A program made the translations under genes and the position numbers. Of a DNA stretch of 64,000 bases, positions 1,625 to 41,376 are shown one piece after another. This DNA comes from Escherichia coli (GTDB taxonomy: Bacteria > Pseudomonadota > Gammaproteobacteria > Enterobacterales > Enterobacteriaceae): NCBI RefSeq assembly GCF_011045215.1, contig NZ_CP049202.1; one strand, given 5' to 3'. How positions within the stretch are numbered: position 1 is the stretch's first letter; every line of letters begins with the position of its first letter. A model generated the notes under the pieces. That model saw nothing but the letters and a program-made list of their open reading frames with translations, searched no databases and had not been told where the DNA came from.

Positions 1625-4600
1625 TCAGTCTCCGCCCAGGGTTTTCTCTTTCTGCAGGTCACGAACCATATCCCGCTCCATCTGCTGCAGTCGCTCCTGC
1701 AGCAGATTTTCCCGGGCAACCTCCCGGACCGCTTCCCGCACCCGTTGTGGTTCACGCAGTACACTCTCCGGCAGCGCGGCTTCCCGTTCAGTTATGGCAG
1801 CCCGGTCACGCTCCTGCCCGGCAATCTCCCTGACAGCCTGCTCTGTTTTGCCATCCGGCAGGTCAGGTTTGTTCTCTGCCATTTTACGGACAATTTCATC
1901 TGCGCGACGTTCCGTTTCACGGCGGATGGCCTCTTCAGCCTGCCGCTGTGCCAGTACCTCTGCCGTGACCGGTTCGCCATTTCCGGCCCCCGGCTGGACG
2001 CTGTTGTCCGGAATATCTCCCCACACGCGACCACCGGTGATGGCACCGGGATTCCACGGGCGACCTTCACCGGCAATTCTCACCACCACACCGCTGTCAG
2101 GATTATCACGAGCAATCCGGACGCCATCCTGCATGTTATCAGCCAGCAGACTCTCTCCGTTACGGCTGCCCTGCAGGGCCACGAACTGCGCATCTCCGCT
2201 GCCTTTCACCCGGCCTTCACCGCTGAATCCCCGCAGCCCGTTTCCGTCATCCGTAGTCAGTGGGTTCAGCCAGATACCGGCGGACTTGCCGTTACGGTCA
2301 AAAGCCGGCAGTGCCACATACGGCTGCGGATATTTGCGCCCCGGTGCAATAAACCGTGCAGGACTGTCTCCCCCGGCAAGTCCCGCCTGACGGAGAACGG
2401 CACGCCCTGCCGCCACGTCCCGCAGTTCCCGTGCCGTACTGAACAGTCGCTCTGCATTCATGACCTCCCGGTCAGCTTTCGGCTCCAGCACATCGTGGGC
2501 AGTCCCTTTCTGTACGGCATTGTTGATGGCATCCGTCCAGCCCTGACGGTCATCAGTGTACACCTGCACATGCTGCTTCATACGCGACAGGGCAACGTAG
2601 GCTGACTCAAAGCCGGCCATCTGTTTCCGGCCACCTTCCGTGCCTTCAAGCGCGATGGCAAAGGTTTCACTCGCCCCCTGTGCACCGTGGGCAGTGATGG
2701 CATAGGCCAGGTCAATATGTTGTTCTGCCTGCTCCTGACCGGGGCGAATCACCCGGGTCTGCAGTCCGTCAGAAAGCGTGACACTGTCACCGGAAACCGC
2801 CGTCACCGTCCAGACGCTGTTGGCCACATAGCCGCGCTCCCGGTCACTCTTCGTGAAGCGCATCCGGTCACCGGTCCCCACCCGGATGGTGTCCGGGGTG
2901 TACAGTGTGACACCTTCAGCCACCGCCTCCCGGGGCGAAATCAGCCGCGTGTTACCTTCCGCATCCTGCAGGGTTATCAGCCCGTCACCCTTACTGATAC
3001 CGGCAATCCGGTGATACACATTATCCACCAGGACAAGTGCGTCCCGATGTGTCTCCCAGGTGGAGAGACGACGCAACTCCCCGTCGCGTATATTCGCTGT
3101 GTTCAGGACAGGCACCATGACCTGCTCTTTTCCCAGCTCACCGGCCTTTTCCCGTGCATCATGAATCATGCTGTTCAGTACGCGCCGGTCCTCATTCAGA
3201 TGCGTGACAATCAGCGTCTGCTCCCGTGCTTCCGGCGTCCTGCCGGTATAATCGCGGACAATGGCTTCATACAGTGTCATGGGAATATCCGGAAAAGCCT
3301 CACCTTTCAGCATCGCCTTCTGCTGCGCTTCTGCCAGTTTCGCTTCCTGGCTGTGACTGAACTCCGTCACGGAGTGCTCCGGTACCCATGCGCCCTCCTG
3401 ACGTGGCACCTGAGACGGTTTCACACTCTCAAGCCCGGACAGTGCCCTTTCCACATCCCGGTTAATCAGGCTGTATACCGCCTCCCGCAGCTCCGGCGTC
3501 TGACGCACAATCTCCTTCATGATGGCCACATCGGCAGCACTGCGCGTCTGCTGGAGACGGAAAGGCTGACCGGGCGCGATGGCCTGCAGCTGGTCCGTGT
3601 CACCACTGGCCACGGCACGACCACCACCGGCCGCAATCAGGGCGTATGCCCGTGCCATGTCGGTATTGCCCACCATTGAGCTCTCATCGAGCAGGAACAG
3701 CGTGTTGCTGAAATCCGGCGTTTCTCCGCTGCGCTGCTGCAGCTGCGTGTCATGCAGAAAGGACGCCAGTGTCTGTGCATCCACGCCAGCGCTGCGCATC
3801 TCCCCGACCGCACGGTGCGTGGGCCCCAGCCCCACGACACGGGGACGCTCACTCTCCGGCAGCATGTTCACGGCTGACATCACCGCCCGGAACTGTGTGG
3901 TCTTACCCACACCGGCATAACCCTGCACCACCGTGAAGCGGTCAGAGGTTTCCAGTATCATGCGGGTGGCGGCACGTTGCCCCGACGTCAGTTTCTCCAT
4001 AAGTTCGCCAGGTACTCTCTCCATCAGCGGCGTGACAGCCTCCTTACCTTCGAGAATATGGCGAATAATGCTTTTTTCAGCCTCATATGACGCACGGGAA
4101 ACCAGCAGGTCTGTGCCATAACCTTTTGCCACATCCACATGCAGTAAATCACCGCGTTTTATCTGTGCATCGATTTCCCGCCCCAGGTCAGCAAAACTGG
4201 TTCCTTCTGCAGCAAACGACTTTGCCTCTGTCAGCAGGTCCACATGGCTGAAGGCCAGGTTTTTACTTTCCACCACCGGAAGGGCCAGATGAATGGCCTG
4301 CTGTGCCGGCGTGTGAAGTGCGGACTTCTGATGACTGATAGCGGTTTCCAGCGATGTCTCACCGGCCCGCGCCTTTATCTGCTCAGAAACCACCGTAAAG
4401 GAGGGATGGCGGGCAAGTTTTTCCGCAGTACGGGTTTCATCCAGTGAGGAATACAGCCGGACATCACGACCGCTGCGGGCCAGACCGTTCAGGGTGGCGT
4501 TGTCCATTGCCATCTGTGTGACGGAGGCAAAAACCTTCGCACTGTCGCTGACGGAATGCCCGGGCGTTTCCACCCAGCCGTTCTCCAGCTTCAGTGCCGT

Positions 4601-6895
4601 GAACGGTGAATCAGCCACAGGCAGGGTGGCCGGTTCAGCCCGCCCCGGCACAACAACCGTCATCGCATCTTCACTGACGGATGCCACCTGCAGGCGGTCA
4701 CCGCCGGAGACGCGGAGTCCGGGGATTTGTCCCGTCACCCTCAGACGCTCGCCGTCTGCCACCGGCATTTTTTCCGGCCGGAACAGCGACCAGCTGCTGT
4801 CCAGAGAAGAAATACGCACCACCTGCGTTTCACCCTGCGCATCCCGCAGGGTCAGGCTGTGACTCTGCGCCGTCACCCGGTCTATCACATAGCGGTCATG
4901 ACTGCGTGTCTCCGGGTTCCACTGCTCCATCACCATCCCCGGGCGGTACATATCCCGCAGATAACGGCTCCGGCTGTCCAGCCAGACCGGTGACAGGGCG
5001 GTCATGGTTACTTCCGGGTGTCCGAGCACGCCCTGTGTTTTCAGCTCACTGCGAATGGCCTGTGTCAGTATGGCCTGTTCCCGTACCCCGCTGACCTGTG
5101 CCACGCTCTCTTCTCCGGCTTTCACGCTGGCCGCAAAATCTCCTGCCAGCCGGGCATAGCGGACATTACGGTCCGGTTCACTGATGATGGTGGCCGGTCG
5201 CTGTTCTCCCCCCAGCCAGCGATATGTGTTCACCCCGGCATCCTTCATGGCCATCAGCGCACTGCCTGTACCGGTTCGCTGCCCGCTGTCGGTTATCAGG
5301 ACCTGTACGTTATGACGTGCGGCACCGTCCAGCAGGGTTAACGTCTCTTTCAGGGAGAGTTTTTCGCCCTGGTCAACGATAACAGTACTGCCCGGCGTGA
5401 AGGCCATGCCTTCCAGCAACTGACGACGTCCGGTTATCAGCTCACCGGACAGCCGTTCATCCTGCTTCAGGTTCATCTGCGAGCGACGGTCAGCAGCGAT
5501 AATCTGCACTTCCCGCCCCTGCTCCCGGGCCATCATGACCAGTTCAGCCACCCGCTCACGCTGCCCGGCTGCACCGCCCTGCCCGGACACAATGGCCAGC
5601 GACGGACGGTCCTGTGCCAGAACACTGACCGCATCGCTGTAACCAGCCGTCCGGGGGACACTTTTCTCCGGATGTACGGTCACCCGGTTCTGTTTCATGA
5701 TGTCACGACTGAGTGCCCGGACGGACAGCTCATCGAGCACATGAATTCCTGATGTGAACAGCCCCTTCTCACGGTCGAGGGGGATGAGTTGCTCACGACT
5801 GATGGCCTCATCGATACCGGCGCGTGCCCGTTCAATCACACCATTTTCCGGCGGCAGTATACCGACCGTTCTGGCCAGCACGTCCGTATACGTGAACTGC
5901 ACTTTTCGTTCACTTAATCCGGCAATGGCCTGTGTCACCGCCTGCTGCACATCCGGCCCCTCCAGTGAAACAGCCCCGGGCGCCTGCGTGCGGGTCTCTG
6001 CCCGTTGCTCCGCCGCGTCACGATACGCCCGGATATCGAACCCGGTTTCCTTCAGTGTCTGCATCCACTCGGTCATTTTGATTTCAGGATCGACGTGCTG
6101 TTTGGATTTTCGCGTATCCAGTGCTGCCACATCCCGGGATTTCAGCGAGGCGTCTTCCCCGACGGCCTCCCTGATAGCCTGCGAACGACTGGAAAAGGCC
6201 TCCACCGGTACGCCCGGCATCTCCCACATCCCGTGCTTACCGACCACTTCGGTTTCATAGCCCAGCGCCTCAACCTGCTCTTTCAGCTTTTCCCGGTAGA
6301 GTCTGCCAAAGGCAATCTGATTAGCGTACACATTCTCAATGAACCCTGTTTTTCCCACTTTGTCACTGCTCAGTGTCTTCCACTCGCCGTTATGCTGTGT
6401 AACATTGGCCACCACCGCATGCGTGTGTAACTGTGGTTCCTGATCGCGACTGGTGTCGTGATTAAAAAGCGCCATCACCAGATTACCGGTCAGCACCGTT
6501 TCTGACTGTCCGTCCGTCATAACCCGTGTGGAGGCCAGCGCCTCCACCTGACGGACAGCAAAATCCACGGCCTGGTTATGTGCATCAATAAGACGTTTAT
6601 CACCGCCTAACATGGCCATCACGGAGACACTTTTGGGGGCGGAGAAGGTCAGGTCGTAGCCGGGACGATGCTTATTACTGCCATCCTGCATGCGGCTTAA
6701 ATCCGCTCCGTCCGGCAGCCTGCCCTCCAGAAGACGGGTAAAAACATCCTTATCGACACTGCCCTGCAGCCCCAGCTGTTCAGCCCCCCTGCCGGCCCAG
6801 CGTTCTCCCATGCTGCCCAGCACATAGTAATTATCCTTGTCGGTATAATAGTTACCGGCACTTCCGGCCGATCTGACCTGCGCGATACTCATCAT
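1625..6895 (-). CDS. traI: TraI relaxase/DNA helicase I (1756 aa)
   Basis: 1756 aa as in F TraI; N-terminal relaxase domain and C-terminal helicase region with Walker A (GYAGVGKT); ATG overlaps traD stop. Confidence 0.97.
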   Translation of the reverse strand: MMSIAQVRSAGSAGNYYTDKDNYYVLGSMGERWAGRGAEQLGLQGSVDKDVFTRLLEGRLPDGADLSRMQDGSNKHRPGYDLTFSAPKSVSVMAMLGGDKRLIDAHNQAVDFAVRQVEALASTRVMTDGQSETVLTGNLVMALFNHDTSRDQEPQLHTHAVVANVTQHNGEWKTLSSDKVGKTGFIENVYANQIAFGRLYREKLKEQVEALGYETEVVGKHGMWEMPGVPVEAFSSRSQAIREAVGEDASLKSRDVAALDTRKSKQHVDPEIKMTEWMQTLKETGFDIRAYRDAAEQRAETRTQAPGAVSLEGPDVQQAVTQAIAGLSERKVQFTYTDVLARTVGILPPENGVIERARAGIDEAISREQLIPLDREKGLFTSGIHVLDELSVRALSRDIMKQNRVTVHPEKSVPRTAGYSDAVSVLAQDRPSLAIVSGQGGAAGQRERVAELVMMAREQGREVQIIAADRRSQMNLKQDERLSGELITGRRQLLEGMAFTPGSTVIVDQGEKLSLKETLTLLDGAARHNVQVLITDSGQRTGTGSALMAMKDAGVNTYRWLGGEQRPATIISEPDRNVRYARLAGDFAASVKAGEESVAQVSGVREQAILTQAIRSELKTQGVLGHPEVTMTALSPVWLDSRSRYLRDMYRPGMVMEQWNPETRSHDRYVIDRVTAQSHSLTLRDAQGETQVVRISSLDSSWSLFRPEKMPVADGERLRVTGQIPGLRVSGGDRLQVASVSEDAMTVVVPGRAEPATLPVADSPFTALKLENGWVETPGHSVSDSAKVFASVTQMAMDNATLNGLARSGRDVRLYSSLDETRTAEKLARHPSFTVVSEQIKARAGETSLETAISHQKSALHTPAQQAIHLALPVVESKNLAFSHVDLLTEAKSFAAEGTSFADLGREIDAQIKRGDLLHVDVAKGYGTDLLVSRASYEAEKSIIRHILEGKEAVTPLMERVPGELMEKLTSGQRAATRMILETSDRFTVVQGYAGVGKTTQFRAVMSAVNMLPESERPRVVGLGPTHRAVGEMRSAGVDAQTLASFLHDTQLQQRSGETPDFSNTLFLLDESSMVGNTDMARAYALIAAGGGRAVASGDTDQLQAIAPGQPFRLQQTRSAADVAIMKEIVRQTPELREAVYSLINRDVERALSGLESVKPSQVPRQEGAWVPEHSVTEFSHSQEAKLAEAQQKAMLKGEAFPDIPMTLYEAIVRDYTGRTPEAREQTLIVTHLNEDRRVLNSMIHDAREKAGELGKEQVMVPVLNTANIRDGELRRLSTWETHRDALVLVDNVYHRIAGISKGDGLITLQDAEGNTRLISPREAVAEGVTLYTPDTIRVGTGDRMRFTKSDRERGYVANSVWTVTAVSGDSVTLSDGLQTRVIRPGQEQAEQHIDLAYAITAHGAQGASETFAIALEGTEGGRKQMAGFESAYVALSRMKQHVQVYTDDRQGWTDAINNAVQKGTAHDVLEPKADREVMNAERLFSTARELRDVAAGRAVLRQAGLAGGDSPARFIAPGRKYPQPYVALPAFDRNGKSAGIWLNPLTTDDGNGLRGFSGEGRVKGSGDAQFVALQGSRNGESLLADNMQDGVRIARDNPDSGVVVRIAGEGRPWNPGAITGGRVWGDIPDNSVQPGAGNGEPVTAEVLAQRQAEEAIRRETERRADEIVRKMAENKPDLPDGKTEQAVREIAGQERDRAAITEREAALPESVLREPQRVREAVREVARENLLQERLQQMERDMVRDLQKEKTLGGD

Positions 6896-9048
6896 CAGAA
6901 ATCATCTCCCGGCTCAACATCCTCCCCGCGCTCCCGGTGCACATTAATGTTCACCTCTTCACGACGCTGCATCTGCTGCTGGATGTCCGGATGATTTTCC
7001 TGTTGCCATGCCTCATAAGCGGCCATATCCACTACTTCACCGGATTCACTGATCCCGGGTGGCAGTTGCTGTTCCATCTCTTCTTCCGGTTTCATTTTCA
7101 GCTCCTGCTCGATCCCCCCTGCCGGAACATTCACACCTGCATCTGACTTCTTATCATTGATGACAGAAGACACTGGCTGTTGTGGCTGTTCAGCCTGAAC
7201 CACGTCTTCTCCGGAAACAACCTCCGGGACATCCGGTTCGAAGAGGCTGGCCATCTGGCGACCTTCTGCTTCTCTTGCGGCAAGCACGGCACTCAGGCGA
7301 TTCTCCATTTCCGGATTGATTTCACGCGGAATAAACTCCGGAGCAACCTTCGGACGTTCCTGATATTTCAGTGAGAGTTTTACTGCCGGATACGGTCCGG
7401 GCAGGGTGACATAACAGGTCAGATCCGGCAGAGACTGAATGTCGGAATAACTGACCAGCGTCTGGCGCTCCATATCCTTACCGGTCGATACCCCGTCACG
7501 CACGGGATCAGCACCGTAGGAATACTGCTCGCTGGCTTTCAGGTGCTCTTTCTCACCAATTTCACCGGCAGCGAACTCTGCAATCTTATGGCTGGGAGAA
7601 CGGAAAAAGGCACGGGTGTTCATGACGTCAAACAGCGTGGCAGCCGCTTTCTCACCGTAGATATCTTCCAGCTGGGCATAGGACTGGATACCAAATACAT
7701 AGCAGCCACCAAACTTACGGGCTTCCGGCAGGATCTCCACCAGGTCCGGCAGTTTGTGTAACGTGGGTAACTCATCACAGAAAAACCACACACGACGGCT
7801 ACGGTTTTCTCCCATTGCCAGCAGACCACGAATGGCAATGGACAGCCACATGGAGATCACCGGCTTCAGGGAGGCATGGGTGTCGGCGTTCGACGAGATA
7901 AACAGCCAGCCGTTTTTCTGATCTTCCCGGACACCACGCATCCAGTCACGGATGGTGAAGGGCTCACCGTTATGCTCAATCCCCTGCAGGTAACGGATGG
8001 CTTTCACGTAGTTGGTCAGCACAGCACGGATGGAAATCGCCGTTTTCTCGATTTTCTCTTCCACCAGGTTGGCCGCCGGTGAATTACGCAGGAAGGTACG
8101 CAGTTTTTCGATTTTGATGGAAAGCAGTGTGTCCACCAGTTTGCTGTAACTGCGGTTGGGGTCATTACGCATCAGGTACGCCGCTTCCGCAAAAATGGTA
8201 CGTCCTGAACCCTGCCAGAACGGGTCCTCTTTTGTGCCCATCGGGATCAGCGTGTTCGCGGTATTATCAAAATCCGGCTGTGTCAGGCACTCCTTCCACA
8301 AATCCCAGGCGGCACAGCGGGCATCCAGCGGATTCAGGATTTTATCGATGGAGGGATCATAGTAACTTTTAACAAATTCCCCTGAACGGTCATAAATCAC
8401 CACCATATCTCCACGCTGACGGGCGTAGTTGGCCAGACGACGGATAACTTCCGACTTACCGGCCCCGACCGTGCCGTGCAGACAGAAGTTCTGGATTTCG
8501 GAATCCCGGATAATCGGCAGGTCGCCAATCCGTATATCGGAGTCCTTGCCGTCTTTTTTCAGCATCCGGGCAACGTCTTTCGGGTTCTCCGTCAGCTGAC
8601 GACCACCTGTGACTTCATTTTCGCTCTGTTGTTTACCCTGACGCCCCAGAATCCAGGAGACAACAAAGAAGGTAATCAGGCAAATAACCAGTGCCACAAC
8701 TGTGGCCAGAACGAATGCGGACCATAGCTGCTCTCCGCACCAGATCATATATTTATCATGCAGTACCTGAGCAGCATTCATCCGGAAGGTTTTGCCGTAA
8801 TACTGGATCTCATATACCGGCTGGGACCTGATTAAATCCCGCATGCCTTCCAGCGTGGTACACCACCAGTAAATACAGCCGTTCACAAACGTCTGCCAGC
8901 TTATTTTTACCCATAAAACCAGACCAACGAGTATCCAGAAAAAAATAAACAGGCAGTAAAGCATGATATTGGCGATCTGGCTGAACATGCGGATACGCAT
9001 GGACGCAATCTGACCGCCCTGGGTCATATCCTTTGCGTTAAAACTCAT
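6895..9048 (-). CDS. traD: TraD type IV coupling protein (717 aa)
   Basis: 717 aa; N-terminal TM segments, Walker A (GTVGAGKS), acidic C-terminal tail ending ...EPGDDF as in F TraD. Confidence 0.95.
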
Positions 9049-9098
9049 GATGAAACTCCGGGAAAATCTGGAACAGAGCAGAAAAGGATGATGTGGGA

Positions 9099-9836
9099 TT
9101 AATTCACAGAAACAGACCAGGTGTACCCTGTATGCCGGTGGTGATAACCGCCTGCAGTCCTGCCGGAAGAGACCTTCTTTGTAACAATGTCAGTCAGGCG
9201 CAATACTTCAGACCAGTCACTCCCATGCGGAAACTGGATCTGAATAAAAAGGCGTACCCGTTCACGATGATCCAGAACTGTGTCCGGTTCATAAAGCAGA
9301 CCACTATCAGGAGAAACACGGGACGTTTTATTGATGAGTTCGTATTTATCGGCATGAGACAGTGATGAAAGCGCCCAGGTAATATTTTCGCCCTGATGAC
9401 CATCAATACGACTGTTCCCCGGCGTCCAGGCAATTTCCTGCGCATTCGCCACGATGATCTGTCTCGATACTTCTGCCAGCTTTTTTGAAGTACAGAATAC
9501 CGGTGCCAGCACACACAGGGACAAAAAATTGCAGCTGACCGCTTCCGGTTTAACCGGACTGCTCCCGGATTTTTCAGGAAAAGATATTTTTGTCAGTATT
9601 TCAGTTAATTCCTTATGCCTGAGAGAGTTAATAAAGTGCATGACAAGCATCATGAGAAACAATATAACAATAAGCCCTCCGATAACCACTAAAAGGTCAG
9701 TATCAATATTATTGTTGTACAGATAGTCTTTAGTGGTCGCTGTATTATCCTGTATCACCGGGGGGTATTCAGTTACAGGCTTCTCAGTAAATTGATTATT
9801 CTCACCAACATATTCAGCGATATTGTCTGATGTCAT
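9099..9836 (-). CDS. Hypothetical single-pass membrane protein (245 aa from ATG with GGAG RBS); not part of the canonical F tra set
   Basis: ORF between traT and traD; start chosen at MTSDNIAEY (GGAG ~8 nt upstream); one strong TM helix ([22 protein letters not shown]); no recognisable domain. Confidence 0.55.
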
Positions 9837-10038
9837 AATGACTTTCTCCGGAAGCTTCCGGCTTCGCCGGCAACACTTCACGGTCGCACAAAGAATTTGC
9901 ACAACCGCTCAGTGTTTTCATATTTATTTCGGAAACGCCGGGGAGAAATAAAATTTATTTTATTTCTTTCCGGGGTTGGACAACGAGCAAAGCGAGGCGT
10001 CAGTCAGGAGGCCGGTCAGACCAGCCTCCTGAAGATAA

Positions 10039-10770
10039 TCAGAGAATATTTGCGATTGATTTGGCCAGCTGGTCTTCGAGAACAGGCTTCGCCTCTTCAA
10101 ATTTCAGGTTAACCTTGTTCGCACTGGAGACCACACGGGTCTGGTATTTATGCTGGTTACCTGTTTCAGTACTGGTCTGAATTTTCGCACCTGATGTGCC
10201 CTGACGCAGGGCGGCAACATTATCCGTTGTCACCGTTGCCTTAGTACGCTCTGCAATCTGCACATCCGTGATCATGGTATAGTTCACATCTTCCACCATC
10301 GCATCTGCAGCCATACCCACCAGACCGGCAGCAAGGCCCACACCGAGTGTGGCACCGGCAGAACTGGAATTATATCCGGTGATACCGGCACCTAACGCTG
10401 CACCAACTGCTGCGCCTTCATAACCACGGTTCAGCCATCCCTGAGACTCCCGCAGATCCATCTTATCGGCCTTCAGCACATTCGCCTGAATCCAGTAGTA
10501 GGCTTTATCCGGAGAAGTCACCACCTGATATCCTTTTGCTTTCACAGCATCAGCAATTTTGCCCTGCAGCCCACTCATGTCTTTATCAGACGTGTTTTTG
10601 ATCTGCAGAAATACCGTGCGTTCGCTGGCGGGTTCAAGCCAGATGGTCTCACTCATCTGAGTCTTCACCTCAAGGTTACGCTTCTTGATTGCTGTGCTCA
10701 TCGCACCACACCCTGAAAGGGCCAGAGTGGAACTGACCAGTGCAACCATCATTAGTTTTTTTGTTTTCAT
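10039..10770 (-). CDS. traT: TraT surface-exclusion outer-membrane lipoprotein (243 aa)
   Basis: Lipoprotein signal with lipobox LSGC; sequence matches remembered TraT; ATG start. Confidence 0.93.
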
Positions 10771-10783
10771 CCAAAATATCCTT

Positions 10784-11293
10784 TTAACTAACAGATTCTT
10801 TTTTGAACAGACCTATTACTGAGACTATTGCAGAGAGATTATAACGATTTATATCTATAGTATAAATAAAGGAAAAAATTACAAACAGAGTTATCGATAA
10901 AAAACCAAATAAGAACGTATGGGCGAAGGAAACTATTGAAAAAACAATCACAAACAACAAGATATAAGTTTTGTTCTTATCATACATAAAAGATATAACT
11001 TTCGACTCATCTCTGAATTTTTTAGGGATAGCAAGATACAACATCATTCCATTAGTAATGGCAACAAAAAGGATAAACCCCATTACGCCACTAAAACATA
11101 TATCAAATCCGGCATCTCGGATATCAACTTTATCTGCCAGCAAACGGAGAAATGTCGGCCATAATAAAATCCATAAAAATACATACCCCCCTGGCTTTAT
11201 GACTTGTAATAATGGCGGAATATTAACACCCTCTACAGAGAGTACATCCTTTAGTTTCTGTGTCTCCGTTTTTATATCATAGTGAGTAATCAT
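10784..11293 (-). CDS. traS: TraS-like entry-exclusion inner-membrane protein (169 aa)
   Basis: Very hydrophobic, AT-rich ORF between traG and traT, the position of the allele-variable traS; start ATG overlaps traG stop. Confidence 0.55.
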
Positions 11294-14136
11294 AATGGTC
11301 CCTTCAGTTGATTCTTTTTCTCATCAATCATTTTTTTCACAGTCTCTTCTGATGGCTCAGGTATTATCTTTTGACTTTCTCGCTCTTCATTATATTTATT
11401 ATTCTGAGATAATGCTTCTGTTTTATGGTGATTTTGTAGTTCAGAATACTGTTTTCTTACAATATTTTCCTCGCCTCGGATGCTGTTCTGAGTATCTCCG
11501 ATATTACCTCGATATTCTGTGACCATATTATCAACCTGATGTTTTACATCATCACGGATATTACTGTCCTGCGTTCTTTGATCAATAATGGCCTGATGCC
11601 CCTGATGGTCAGCAATAATATCCTGGCTGCCACCACCCGAAGGTACGCTCTCCATTCCTTTACCAATATCGCCACGGGATTCACGCCAGGCATTATCAAC
11701 ACCAGGCTGTATCTGTTCCTGCACAAAAGACCAGGCCATCGCCCGACGGCGTTCTGCAATCTCCGGCGAACTGGTATTTGTCAGAATAGCTTCGGCATCC
11801 TGCGGTGCGTGTTTCATCACATACTGTGCAAACTGTTGCGACAAATCTTCACTCATCTGCCCACTCATGCTTTCAGTACGGGATGCCATTTCAGCATATT
11901 CATGGCTGCGGGTCATATTCGTCGTGTACTGGTCGTAACTCTGTTTCGCTGAGTTCAGGGCTGCAGACAGCTGGTCCACACGGGAATCGGCATTATTGTC
12001 AGTATGGCTGCCGGACTCACTGACTTTGCGACTGGTAAAGTAATCGCTGGCCTCTTTAAAGTCCTTACTGGCTTTAGCATCGATATCATGTCGAGCATCA
12101 TGGGTAGCCCTGCTGCCACTACTTGCAGAATGTGAATCATCATCCGTTCGATCAAGACTTCCCTTAAATCCGCCTCTGACACCAACTCCACCACCAACCC
12201 CAAGAATTTTAGGTTTAATCCCCCATTCAGCATGAGCATCTGCATATCCGCCATACGAGAACTTAGAACCTGTTGATGCCAGTTCCTGAGTCGCCTGCTC
12301 ATTACTGATATTATGCGCTTTCGCATAGCTTTCCACTGCACTGCGCATACGGCTGGCCATCATGGAGTCCTGTGCGCTCATCGTGCTGTCAGCGCCACCG
12401 GTGACAGAATCACTGCTCCCCCGGTTAGAACCAAACTGACTGAGCGTATTCCAGGCACTGGCAATACTGCTGCTGAACCCATGCAGGGCGCTTTCTGCTC
12501 TGTTCGATGCCTCCCGGGCCATTTCCTGTTGTGCCGCCGCAATCTGACGCGTTGCATTGATACCGACCGGTAAACGGGACATCGCTCCGCTTGCATCCAT
12601 AACCATATTACCGTCACGGGTCTGTGTGGCGGTTGCGCCACTGCCGGTCTGGTACATCATCTGACCAAACGACGTGGTGCTGTTGGTGCTCCAGCTGAAG
12701 CCGTTCACGTTTTCCGTCTGCATGTTGCCGTAGGAGTAATTACCGTCAACCACACTGCCTGCTGCACTGGCCGTCGGACTGATAGATGAAGAGGCGAAGT
12801 GGCTGTACACACTGGAAAAACCTGCGCCAAGGCCTTTTACCATCATCCATGACAACGGGGGTATCATGACAGATATATATCCGGCAGTGGACGCCAGGTC
12901 GGAGTATTTCAGCTGTATCTGAGAGAGTTCAGAGAGCACGACCGGTGCACCATTCTGCTTTGCATAGAATGTCATGGCACTGTTCAGAATGGCATACAGC
13001 AACGGCCAGGTCTGGAACCACATCAGGGCAAACACATAGCCCTTCAGTACAGACAGCGTTAACCTGTTGAAGACCGCCGCCAGTACCAGGAGCGGGAAGA
13101 TACCAATGGTAATGCCCACCAGAATGGTCTGCACCATCGGCAGGTTTCGCATCAGCACATGACCAATGGAGACATGTGCCAGACGCTGTTTCTCCATCGA
13201 CGAGGTCGTGGCCAGACTGACCAGGCTGGCGGTATCACCGTTACGGGCTGCATTACTGGTGATACCCTCTTTCAGGGCATTCATGGTGACGTTCTGGCGC
13301 ATAATATGGCTGGCAGACTGGCTGGAGCCGTAGAAATAACTGTAACTGTCACTCACCAGTTGCCTGAATAACAGGTCCGGGTCCGGTCTGCCGCCAAATA
13401 TCTGCTGGACATAATAATGCCAGGTCTTGCCTCCGGTATTCGTATCAAAATTCAGCTTATCCTTCAGTCCGACGGATGCGTCCTTACAGGACACAAACGG
13501 CTCTGAACTGTGCAGAAAACTGTAATTATTATTCGGCACCTGACGTAAAGGGCTGGGCTGAGAAAAGATTATGGTGTACGGGTCAGAGGAGGCCATCAGG
13601 TCTTCCAGCGTGTATTTGTGATTCAGGTAAATATCACCCAGCACGCAGTTCTGGACGTAGTCCTGAAACAGATTGATGATTTCCGGATTCCGGGACAGAA
13701 AATCGGTGCTTTTCACAATCAGGTTCGCCCCGAACAGCATGCCTGTCTTGCTGTAGGTGGCGCTGTCAGGCTGAGCGAACACCATCTCATAGCCGGCCAC
13801 CATTGCATGCCCGATACGGGTCGTCAGTGAAAGTGGCATCGCCAGTCCGACCGGCACATTATCCACCCGATGGACTTTGACCAGGTCACTGTTATCAATA
13901 ATCTGCACCGACGTGCGGACATTAACCAGCAGGCTGATAAGCACAAACACGGCCACCCAGCCCAGCAAATCCATCACGTTGTGCCGCTGTACCCATATCA
14001 CGGCCACCGCGAGAACAGACAATGTGAGCGCAATTTTTTCAATGGAATCCCACGTCCTGGTTCCCATAAAGGCGGCAATGGCGTTCAGGTTATTCCGCAA
14101 CCATTCACCACCGGCAATCACATAAACTTCATTCAC
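11290..14136 (-). CDS. traG: TraG mating-pair stabilisation / entry-exclusion partner (948 aa)
   Basis: N-terminus MNEVYVIAGGEWL..., N-terminal membrane domain, large periplasmic C-terminal part; track start codon reads as GTG overlapping traH stop. Confidence 0.9.
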   Translation of the reverse strand: MNEVYVIAGGEWLRNNLNAIAAFMGTRTWDSIEKIALTLSVLAVAVIWVQRHNVMDLLGWVAVFVLISLLVNVRTSVQIIDNSDLVKVHRVDNVPVGLAMPLSLTTRIGHAMVAGYEMVFAQPDSATYSKTGMLFGANLIVKSTDFLSRNPEIINLFQDYVQNCVLGDIYLNHKYTLEDLMASSDPYTIIFSQPSPLRQVPNNNYSFLHSSEPFVSCKDASVGLKDKLNFDTNTGGKTWHYYVQQIFGGRPDPDLLFRQLVSDSYSYFYGSSQSASHIMRQNVTMNALKEGITSNAARNGDTASLVSLATTSSMEKQRLAHVSIGHVLMRNLPMVQTILVGITIGIFPLLVLAAVFNRLTLSVLKGYVFALMWFQTWPLLYAILNSAMTFYAKQNGAPVVLSELSQIQLKYSDLASTAGYISVMIPPLSWMMVKGLGAGFSSVYSHFASSSISPTASAAGSVVDGNYSYGNMQTENVNGFSWSTNSTTSFGQMMYQTGSGATATQTRDGNMVMDASGAMSRLPVGINATRQIAAAQQEMAREASNRAESALHGFSSSIASAWNTLSQFGSNRGSSDSVTGGADSTMSAQDSMMASRMRSAVESYAKAHNISNEQATQELASTGSKFSYGGYADAHAEWGIKPKILGVGGGVGVRGGFKGSLDRTDDDSHSASSGSRATHDARHDIDAKASKDFKEASDYFTSRKVSESGSHTDNNADSRVDQLSAALNSAKQSYDQYTTNMTRSHEYAEMASRTESMSGQMSEDLSQQFAQYVMKHAPQDAEAILTNTSSPEIAERRRAMAWSFVQEQIQPGVDNAWRESRGDIGKGMESVPSGGGSQDIIADHQGHQAIIDQRTQDSNIRDDVKHQVDNMVTEYRGNIGDTQNSIRGEENIVRKQYSELQNHHKTEALSQNNKYNEERESQKIIPEPSEETVKKMIDEKKNQLKGPL

Positions 14137-36360: not shown

Positions 36361-37008
36361 TTATCTTCCCAATATTTCTTTTACTTTAGCATATAAAGGA
36401 AGTATCTTTTCCGTTCTAATCATTTCATCCAACCAGAGATCTCTAGAACTAAATCCATATCGTTTAAATAATTTCATGGTTTTCTTCTTTGATTTAGACA
36501 CAGTGATGTTCATCTTTGCTGATGAATAATGATGGCTAAACCCTATCAGATATGGCTCAATGCCTACATATTCATCAGAGGGTACAATTAATTCATTGGA
36601 GTATTTAGACACAACAAACGATGACAGATTATCATTTGCTACCCAAATAAACCTCCAGATGAAGAAATAGCCGCATGGTGTTATAACACTTTCTATGATC
36701 ACACTCCATAACGTATTATTAAGTAATATGTCATTATTACAATTTACACCATAAATAGAAGAGCATGATTCAATCTCTGCTCTGGATAACTGTAATTTAC
36801 ATTCCAACGTTAAACTATCAAACCATTCATCACATGAATTAAAGGACGATCTGATAAGTTTTTCAAAGCAGTTATTTTCCTTAATAAAAGAACCATCCTC
36901 GAAGCGGATACATACAGGATATTTTAAAAACGAAATAGCCTCTCCAAGACTATGAGGGAAATGCAATTGACTGATGAGTGCTCTTTCTCTACGATCCATC
37001 GCACACAT
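36361..37008 (-). CDS. traJ: TraJ-type activator of the tra operon (about 215 aa from ATG with GGAGG RBS)
   Basis: AT-rich ORF between traM and traY; strong RBS at the chosen ATG; the upstream in-frame extension contains the FinP-target hairpin; identity by position, sequence is divergent. Confidence 0.6.
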
Positions 37009-37085
37009 AGGAACCTCCGTTAAGGATTCTATGGACAGTCGATGCAGGGAGTGGCTGCTCCCTGCATCGGCGATTTTCAGTTTCA
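37005..37085 (+). ncRNA. finP: FinP antisense RNA (approximate), complementary to the traJ leader
   Basis: Perfect 12-bp stem / 6-nt loop hairpin (~37040..37069) immediately upstream of the traJ RBS, where FinP is encoded in F-like plasmids. Confidence 0.4.
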
Positions 37086-37198
37086 ATTTTTAACGTGGCA
37101 TTAACCACGTAATCAATATACTAATTATTCTGATTATTGTCATCAGTTCGAACCATAAAAAACTCTGATATTTGAACAAAGTCAAAATTTATTTCCCT

Positions 37199-40943: not shown

Positions 40944-41102
40944 CTACTTACCGGATTCGTAAGCCATGAAAGCCGCCACCTCCCTGTATCCGTCTCTGTA
41001 ACGAATCTCGCACAGCGATTTTCGTGTCAGATAAGTGAATATCAACAGTGTGAGACACACGATCAACACACACCAGACAAGAGAGCTGCGTGGTAGTTTC
41101 AT
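40944..41102 (-). CDS. hok: Hok-family membrane toxin (52 aa), flmA/hok type
   Basis: [52 protein letters not shown] is near-identical to Hok. Confidence 0.9.
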
Positions 41103-41160
41103 GGCCTTCTTCTCCTTGCGCAAAGCGCGGTAAGAGGCTATCCTGATGTTGTCTAAGCAT
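40948..41160 (-). CDS. mok: Mok-type overlapping reading frame (modulator of killing)
   Basis: 70-aa ORF overlapping hok in a different frame, as in hok/mok/sok loci. Confidence 0.5.
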
Positions 41161-41210
41161 GCAGGGGCCTCGTGGGTTAATGAAAAATTAACTACGGGGC
41201 TTTTGTCCTT
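41130..41210 (+). ncRNA. sok: Sok-type antisense RNA (approximate placement only)
   Basis: Inferred from the conserved hok/sok architecture; not resolved directly from sequence. Confidence 0.3.
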
Positions 41211-41376
41211 CTGCCACACAACACGGCAACAAACCACCTTCACGTCATGAGGCAGAAAGCCTCAAGCGCCGGGCACATCATAGCCCATATCCCTGCACGC
41301 TGACCACACTCACTTTTCCTGAAAATAATCCGCTCATTCAGGCTGTTTACGGGTAATCTGTGTGATTGTTGCCGCA

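Follow-up and report, generated by a model that had tools for sequence, protein, structure and literature searches.

The interval between traT and traD in this F-like transfer region of Escherichia coli raises the question of which gene it holds, how this gene came to lie there and what its product might contribute to the plasmid. The window (the whole stretch of 64 000 nt that was analyzed) contains a complete F-like transfer region with traI, traD, traT, traS and traG all on the minus strand, and the traT–traD gap in it spans exactly 990 bp (9049-10038). A sequence-only reading of this DNA had described an extra ORF of 245 aa in a gap of ~1 kb, which proved to be correct: the ORF is located on the minus strand and is absent from F. 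The gene and its immediate surroundings are composed as follows:

10039-10770, minus strand: traT, the upstream neighbour (ORF list; 99.6% identity with the annotated TraT of the F-type plasmid L003)
9846-9849, minus strand: Shine–Dalgarno GGAG of yhfA, 9 nt upstream of the ATG (read from the sequence)
9099-9836, minus strand: coding sequence of yhfA, 245 aa from the ATG at 9836, TAA stop at 9099-9101 (ORF list and translation)
6895-9048, minus strand: traD, the downstream neighbour, 50 nt past the yhfA stop (96.6% identity with the annotated TraD of L003)

The GGAG had been described as a strong ribosome-binding site with a spacing of 8 nt; the motif is present, but the spacing is 9 nt. A GTG start, which would lengthen the protein to 267 aa (to 9902), is unlikely because F-type plasmids have non-coding sequence where the additional codons would lie, and RefSeq takes the ATG.

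The ORF could be identified by comparison with R100 (NC_002134.1), which encodes WP_000199905.1 on the tra strand, flanked by traT and traD. The window product shows 91% identity to this protein (the same accession is found in plasmid L001), and both are 245 aa long. In a published comparison of pEntH10407, R100 and F an ORF named YhfA was found in R100, with no similar ORF in F (PMC2762410). UniProt/AFDB entries use the same name, and it is borne by the best AFDB50 match (90% identity) for our model of the C-terminal domain (C-domain, see below). All examined records that annotate a gene at this position label it ‘hypothetical protein’. The extra ORF is yhfA, an already named gene of R100-type F-like plasmids, and we regard our observation as a rediscovery and not as a new element; the sequence-only reading had missed this identity. 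By searching the literature by accession, by traT–traD phrases and by the name yhfA we found no functional study, and the literature on ST131 plasmids yielded one mention of yhfA, as co-varying with traC. Within the window, tblastn and HMM search found no paralogue of yhfA elsewhere.

For the analysis of selection we codon-aligned eight yhfA alleles and calculated dN/dS by the Nei–Gojobori method. Over the C-terminal 145 codons dN/dS ranged from 0.12 to 0.29 (about 0.2) in every informative pair, even where dS exceeded 1; L004, the allele that diverges most, reaches a C-domain dS of about 1.2-1.4. For traT in those same plasmids we observed values of 0.02-0.31. The first 100 codons of yhfA gave 0.5 to above 1 among close alleles, and in two clusters, P0027 (244 aa, 59 members) and P0074 (225 aa), these codons are swapped for unrelated sequence with saturated dS. 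Both clusters retain the C-domain, the replaced N-terminal tail is still acidic, and the gene is found between traT and traD. Judged by this substitution pattern yhfA is a real protein-coding gene under purifying selection, and it is more than a chance ORF because the dN/dS of the C-domain stays at about 0.2 even at dS above 1.

Next, we determined the distribution of the gene. A DNA search found yhfA in 1209 of 5426 complete E. coli genomes (about 22%), where 1398 of the 1402 sites are on plasmids and four on chromosomes. At the protein level 1929 PLSDB plasmids carry yhfA, and megablast with the gap sequence matched 4033 PLSDB plasmids, 1770 of which cover at least 80% of the gap; the others, F-type plasmids among them, have only 9856-10038 of it. 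No match to yhfA was obtained in phage records by tblastn. Among 1.84 billion representative proteins, a profile search recovered close relatives, fragments and frameshifted calls and, beyond these, only one weak match (P0139) to what we refer to as subfamily B, and a search of 5.8 billion proteins with a profile of subfamilies A and B together gave no further subfamilies. Scanning 100 044 species genomes with a degenerate DNA motif resulted in eight matches, of which two were true and nothing was new. These two are subfamily A sequences at full HMM score, one in a Lachnospiraceae MAG (HGM12199, L021) and one on a 411-bp contig of Acinetobacter idrijaensis MII (L027); most likely the former is a mis-binned IncF plasmid contig and the latter a contamination in public assemblies. 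Taken together, yhfA is restricted to F-like (MPF_F) plasmids from Enterobacteriaceae.

Subfamily A comprises the variants A1, A2 and A3, and yhfA was found between traT and traD at every examined locus of these variants. In the A2 plasmid L005 the traG–traT slot has no traS, and at 4661-4984 (minus strand) we noticed a reverse-strand ORF of 102–107 aa that appears YbjQ-like by eye. The window allele of yhfA is rare: five PLSDB records show at least 95% protein identity in the C-domain, and at the DNA level two plasmids are close (99.6%) among the matches listed, the next best reaching 95.2%. The TraT of the window and the N-terminus of its TraD share more than 99% identity with common F-type alleles, and the dS of the window C-domain against other alleles is about 0.23, compared to 0.01-0.07 for traT. 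We therefore consider the region a recombination mosaic.

The limits of the variable segment were defined by pairwise alignment with the L003 spacer, by the coverage classes of the megablast search and by blastn of the gap:

9053-9855, minus strand: haplotype-specific cassette, present in R100-type plasmids; F-type plasmids have about 63 unrelated nt instead

In F-type plasmids the traT–traD gap measures 251 bp and only window positions 9856-10038 are common to both, while pSLT-type plasmids have a gap of 376 bp. We found no remnants of yhfA in the F and pSLT spacers. The gap also differs in size among plasmids of subfamily B, which is represented by the 230-aa pSE11-2-type protein WP_000235174.1 (P0140, 675 members), of which P0139 is a frameshifted copy. 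WP_000235174.1 shares 34% identity with the window protein across 141 aa (E = 6e-24). Like YhfA of subfamily A, it has an acidic tail, one helix, a basic flank and the C-domain, whereas its N-terminal sequence is unrelated to that of the window protein. In pSE11-2 the gene is immediately downstream of traT; where traT is missing, it follows a traS-like gene and precedes other cargo and traD. Between yhfA-B and traD we observed a DUF2726 gene and in some plasmids also vapBC, giving gap sizes of about 1.4 kb and about 2.1 kb, respectively, and adjacency to traD is therefore not conserved. Examples of such pSE11-2-type gap contents, a small DUF2726-domain gene and in some plasmids a reverse-strand vapBC toxin–antitoxin pair, are found in L011 (5976-6344), L012 (5975-6985) and L016 (5976-6996). 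The traT–traD gap behaves like a cargo slot within the tra operon. Subfamily B copies are often frameshifted or truncated, and in L016 (CP099214.1, 4069-5739), a plasmid typed conjugative, traT is absent between the traS-like gene and a truncated yhfA-B.

Five motifs are invariant across both subfamilies (W-x-PG-x-SR-x-D, Q-x-x-N-x-x-W, RL-x-x-x-IQ, AGG and GYTW), and the invariant polar residues are S142, R143, D145, Q148, N151, R173, R195, Q201, Y238 and T239 in full-length numbering (residue numbers in alignment A3, which spans both subfamilies, are 95 lower). Between plasmids of the A and B lineages TraD is 46% identical overall and 34% identical in its N-terminal 140 residues, and TraT is 81% identical. 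As the 34% identity between the YhfA C-domains of A and B matches the value for the TraD N-terminus and is near that for whole TraD, these comparisons suggest that yhfA is probably an ancestral gene, which the F and pSLT lineages have lost, rather than a recent insertion.

In order to describe the protein we divided it into the following segments:

9696-9836, minus strand: residues 1-47, acidic tail, predicted to be disordered and probably periplasmic (2 K/R versus 9 D/E; pLDDT about 31 in the full-length model)
9630-9695, minus strand: residues 48-69, predicted single transmembrane helix (Kyte–Doolittle mean of 3.2 over 19 residues; AlphaFold helix 46-85)
9102-9533, minus strand: residues 102-245, conserved alpha/beta domain, probably cytoplasmic (AlphaFold2 pLDDT 86.8, pTM 0.86; dN/dS about 0.2)

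The only strong hydrophobic segment covers residues 48-66/69 (mean hydropathy 3.2). It starts at residue 48, after the acidic tail, and we found neither a signal peptide nor a lipobox. The sequence-only reading had proposed one transmembrane helix followed by a C-terminal domain of ~170 aa; the single helix and the folded domain were recovered, but the domain comprises about 145 aa. It had further assumed a short cytoplasmic N-terminus, and here the charges point the other way. Across the four divergent N-terminal types the tail of 45–52 aa holds one or two K/R versus six to nine D/E, and the 15 residues flanking the helix contain 1, 0, 0 and 1 K/R on the N side versus 2, 4, 3 and 2 on the C side, which are modest margins. 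Because of the acidic tails and the clustering of K/R after the helix, the positive-inside rule, used here by itself, favours a bitopic inner-membrane protein with the N-terminus outside and the C-domain in the cytoplasm. The opposite arrangement, in which the folded domain would be periplasmic, either with the N-terminus inside or with residues 99-117 as a second helix, and YhfA would be an envelope protein, could draw on the borderline hydropathy of that stretch (mean 1.71) and on the cysteines 102, 108 and 115, which are invariant among the subfamily A sequences aligned. However, the charge bias is the same in all four N-terminal types, the stretch 99-117 forms strand b1 of the C-domain model in a block with a pLDDT of about 95, and subfamily B has Asp and Pro in its counterpart and does not keep the cysteines. 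The lack of any cysteine conserved between the subfamilies fits a cytoplasmic domain, and a periplasmic one appears distinctly unlikely to us.

As the full-length AlphaFold model was poor (pLDDT 41.5), it was left out of the fold searches, and the C-domain was modelled with AlphaFold2 on alignment A3. The predicted topology is b1-a1-b2-b3-long loop-b4-a2-b5-b6, which would correspond to two beta-alpha-beta-beta units. With this model the AFDB50 fold search returned YhfA itself and otherwise only unannotated proteins; these include A0AAW8HD37, A0AAP9QIY0 and A0A8T8CB46 and others from Enterobacterales and Pseudomonas (Foldseek E of 1e-6 to 1e-5, probability 1.00, query TM-score 0.6-0.73). These relatives are 188–447 aa long and share only 10–15% identity with YhfA. 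No hit at an E-value of 0.001 or better was obtained among the BFVD viral structures, and a PDB sequence search gave no match to solved structures. In Pfam the best match was SpoIIM (E = 0.13), over the transmembrane segment only; NCBIfam and PHROG gave no families, and PADLOC-DB 2.0 none at E up to 1.

We further analyzed the signals that may govern expression of yhfA and traD. The 183 bp directly 3' of traT are common to F and pSLT, and in the RNA fold the part of the spacer next to traT forms three strong hairpins and a small one (-87 kcal/mol, z = -8.1), a stability reached by none of 200 shuffled sequences. The elements considered are:

10004-10032, minus strand: hairpin 1, a 13-bp G+C-rich stem directly after the traT stop (RNA fold; conserved in F-type and pSLT-type spacers)
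9934-9977, minus strand: hairpin 2, an A/U-rich stem capped by CCGG/CCCC (RNA fold)
9872-9916, minus strand: hairpin 3, with a 13-bp inner stem (RNA fold)
9056-9059, minus strand: Shine–Dalgarno GGAG of traD, 7 nt before the traD ATG and inside the cassette; the F-type equivalent is GGAA

The RNA fold thus agrees with the earlier statement that the ORF is downstream of a hairpin after traT, although several hairpins are present. No U-run follows any of the spacer hairpins, and none of them was flagged as a terminator in the scan. The same reading had considered a promoter of its own for the ORF, which we could not substantiate, as a consensus scan detected no sigma-70 promoter between traT and the yhfA start; the best candidate by eye, TTGTCC-N15-TAAAAT inside hairpin 2, is weak. 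The simplest assumption is that yhfA would be read through from the tra transcript together with traD. Since the cassette carries GGAG where F-type plasmids have GGAA, translation initiation of TraD may differ between the haplotypes. In a 259-aa allele of yhfA (L007/L008, NZ_OX030729.1/LC521846.1, 1497-2276) the stop is lost and the frame reads through the 50-nt spacer until it meets the traD start codon in an overlapping ATGA, which would couple translation of both genes. Elsewhere in the window, Rfam reported above the gathering score the AS-traG antisense RNA (13311-13396, plus strand), FinP with the traJ 5' UTR (37002-37110) and sok (41100-41271, minus strand), RNAs expected in an F-like plasmid.

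Several observations bear on whether transfer depends on the gene. yhfA is missing from F-type plasmids whose TraD is 99% identical at the N-terminus. IS66-family elements split yhfA at different positions in pEntH10407 (PMC2762410), in L014/L015 and in L019; in the latter, a plasmid typed conjugative, ISEc23 (3537-5953) interrupts yhfA, with traD and traI intact. As F does without the gene and some plasmids with otherwise intact tra regions have it interrupted by IS elements, yhfA is dispensable for transfer. Overall we noted insertions of ISEc8-like, IS66 and ISEc23 elements in independent plasmids (e.g. L014, 295-2910), and their varied positions suggest that yhfA is a preferred or tolerated target. 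At its N-terminus TraD remains 98–99% identical among plasmids with yhfA, without it or with a yhfA that has another N-terminal module, and this missing covariation argues against a specific partnership with TraD.

Our preferred reading, which we put forward tentatively, is that yhfA is an accessory gene of the R100-type transfer operon and that its product is a bitopic protein whose cytoplasmic domain may act on a conjugation-linked process. The protein would expose its acidic tail of 45–50 aa to the periplasm, cross the membrane with one helix and continue through a basic juxtamembrane stretch and a Pro/Ser-rich linker into the cytoplasmic alpha/beta domain of ~145 aa. Because dN/dS in the N-terminal part is 0.5 to above 1 and this module is replaced while the C-domain is conserved, the N-terminal part may be mainly an exchangeable anchor and the cytoplasmic domain the working part. 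With no consensus promoter, the gene would probably be read within the tra transcript, through the structured 3' region of traT and along with traD, and the cassette would supply the traD ribosome-binding site and set the translation context of traD. The cytoplasmic domain might act at the inner membrane face; with low confidence we would name TraD as its most plausible target, or else DNA processing or entry, and, likewise with low confidence, any such role would be modulatory and not essential.

In the main rival explanation yhfA is cargo that occupies a variable slot of the tra operon and serves in competition or defence, perhaps directed against pilus-specific phages or rival plasmids; the membrane anchor would then place the domain where foreign nucleic acid enters. 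This would agree with a gap that varies from 251 bp in F to about 2.1 kb with yhfA-B, DUF2726 and vapBC, with the clean presence/absence boundaries of the cassette, with the exchange of an N-terminal module that has a dN/dS near 1 and with a low G+C content of 36–42% in the 5' half of the ORF compared to about 53% in traD. However, PADLOC, PHROG and the phage records gave no matches, and we found no copy beyond an F-like tra context, leaving aside the four chromosomal sites among the 1402 of E. coli. Known defence genes usually move among islands, prophages and plasmids. The divergence of yhfA moreover matches that of TraD, suggesting vertical descent with the operon, and on balance we consider the cargo explanation somewhat doubtful. 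For a gene without present function, a decaying relic kept only by its operon position, one could cite that F and pSLT lack it without loss of transfer, that many copies are truncated or IS-disrupted and make up large clusters (P0021, n = 921; P0011, n = 230) and that ISEc8, IS66 and ISEc23 have inserted into it. Against this, the C-domain is constrained out to dS above 1, the intact forms of 243–246 aa dominate the clusters (P0003, n = 2474; P0001, n = 1341), the motifs are kept across the A/B split and several of the truncated-copy clusters adjoin IS elements or contig ends, so that we regard a relic as very improbable.

The sequence-only reading had suggested an exclusion-related or envelope-targeting role, in which YhfA would work with TraS and TraT. 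Its position directly after the exclusion genes (in subfamily B just after traT, where traT is present) is in line with this proposal, and so is a membrane protein with a variable N-terminal module, reminiscent of exclusion specificity determinants. YhfA also resembles TraS of F-like plasmids in being a small inner-membrane protein with allelic diversity encoded in the same part of the operon. Unlike YhfA, TraS lacks a soluble domain, being hydrophobic along its whole length; the two share no sequence similarity, and the traG–traT slot of the window is held by a separate traS (10784-11293), so that YhfA does not qualify as a TraS-type entry exclusion protein. Moreover, yhfA is found together with three unrelated types of traS and is missing next to one that is 76% identical to the traS of the window, the type of N-terminal module does not follow the type of traS (L004, an A3 variant, and L006, an A1 variant, both have R100-type traS), and one plasmid without traT keeps a truncated yhfA-B. 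F shows complete surface and entry exclusion without yhfA. An exclusion role was thus not borne out and appears highly unlikely. Among other inner-membrane proteins encoded beside a coupling-protein gene, TraJ of the IncHI1 plasmid R27 (beside TraG) is polytopic and required for transfer; YhfA shares the position, but it is predicted to be bitopic, it is dispensable, it has no similarity to TraJ and TraD does not covary with it. We also considered whether yhfA is tir, the R100 inhibitor of RP4 transfer, and rejected this, as tir lies next to pemI/pemK and the R100 gene beside pemI encodes a different protein. Just upstream of pemI/pemK, R100 encodes a CPBP-family membrane protein (90608-91261; L028 20609-21262), and a second DUF2726-domain gene of this plasmid is located near repA (L028 17424-18014).

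Coming back to the accessory gene reading, a more far-reaching version, which we consider unlikely at present, is that YhfA is a membrane-tethered domain of a new fold that tunes the coupling protein or the entry and exit of DNA, or that guards against pilus phages and rival plasmids. If this were true, yhfA would account for some of the differences in behaviour that separate F from the clinically dominant IncFII plasmids. The gene lies within the transfer operon of the IncF plasmids on which much of the antibiotic resistance of E. coli, Klebsiella, Shigella and Salmonella resides. Should yhfA have no measurable effect, it would be an example of an operon-embedded gene that is kept for other reasons; an influence on transfer, TraD expression, phage sensitivity or plasmid competition would make yhfA an inexpensive target for work on why F and R100/R1-type plasmids differ.
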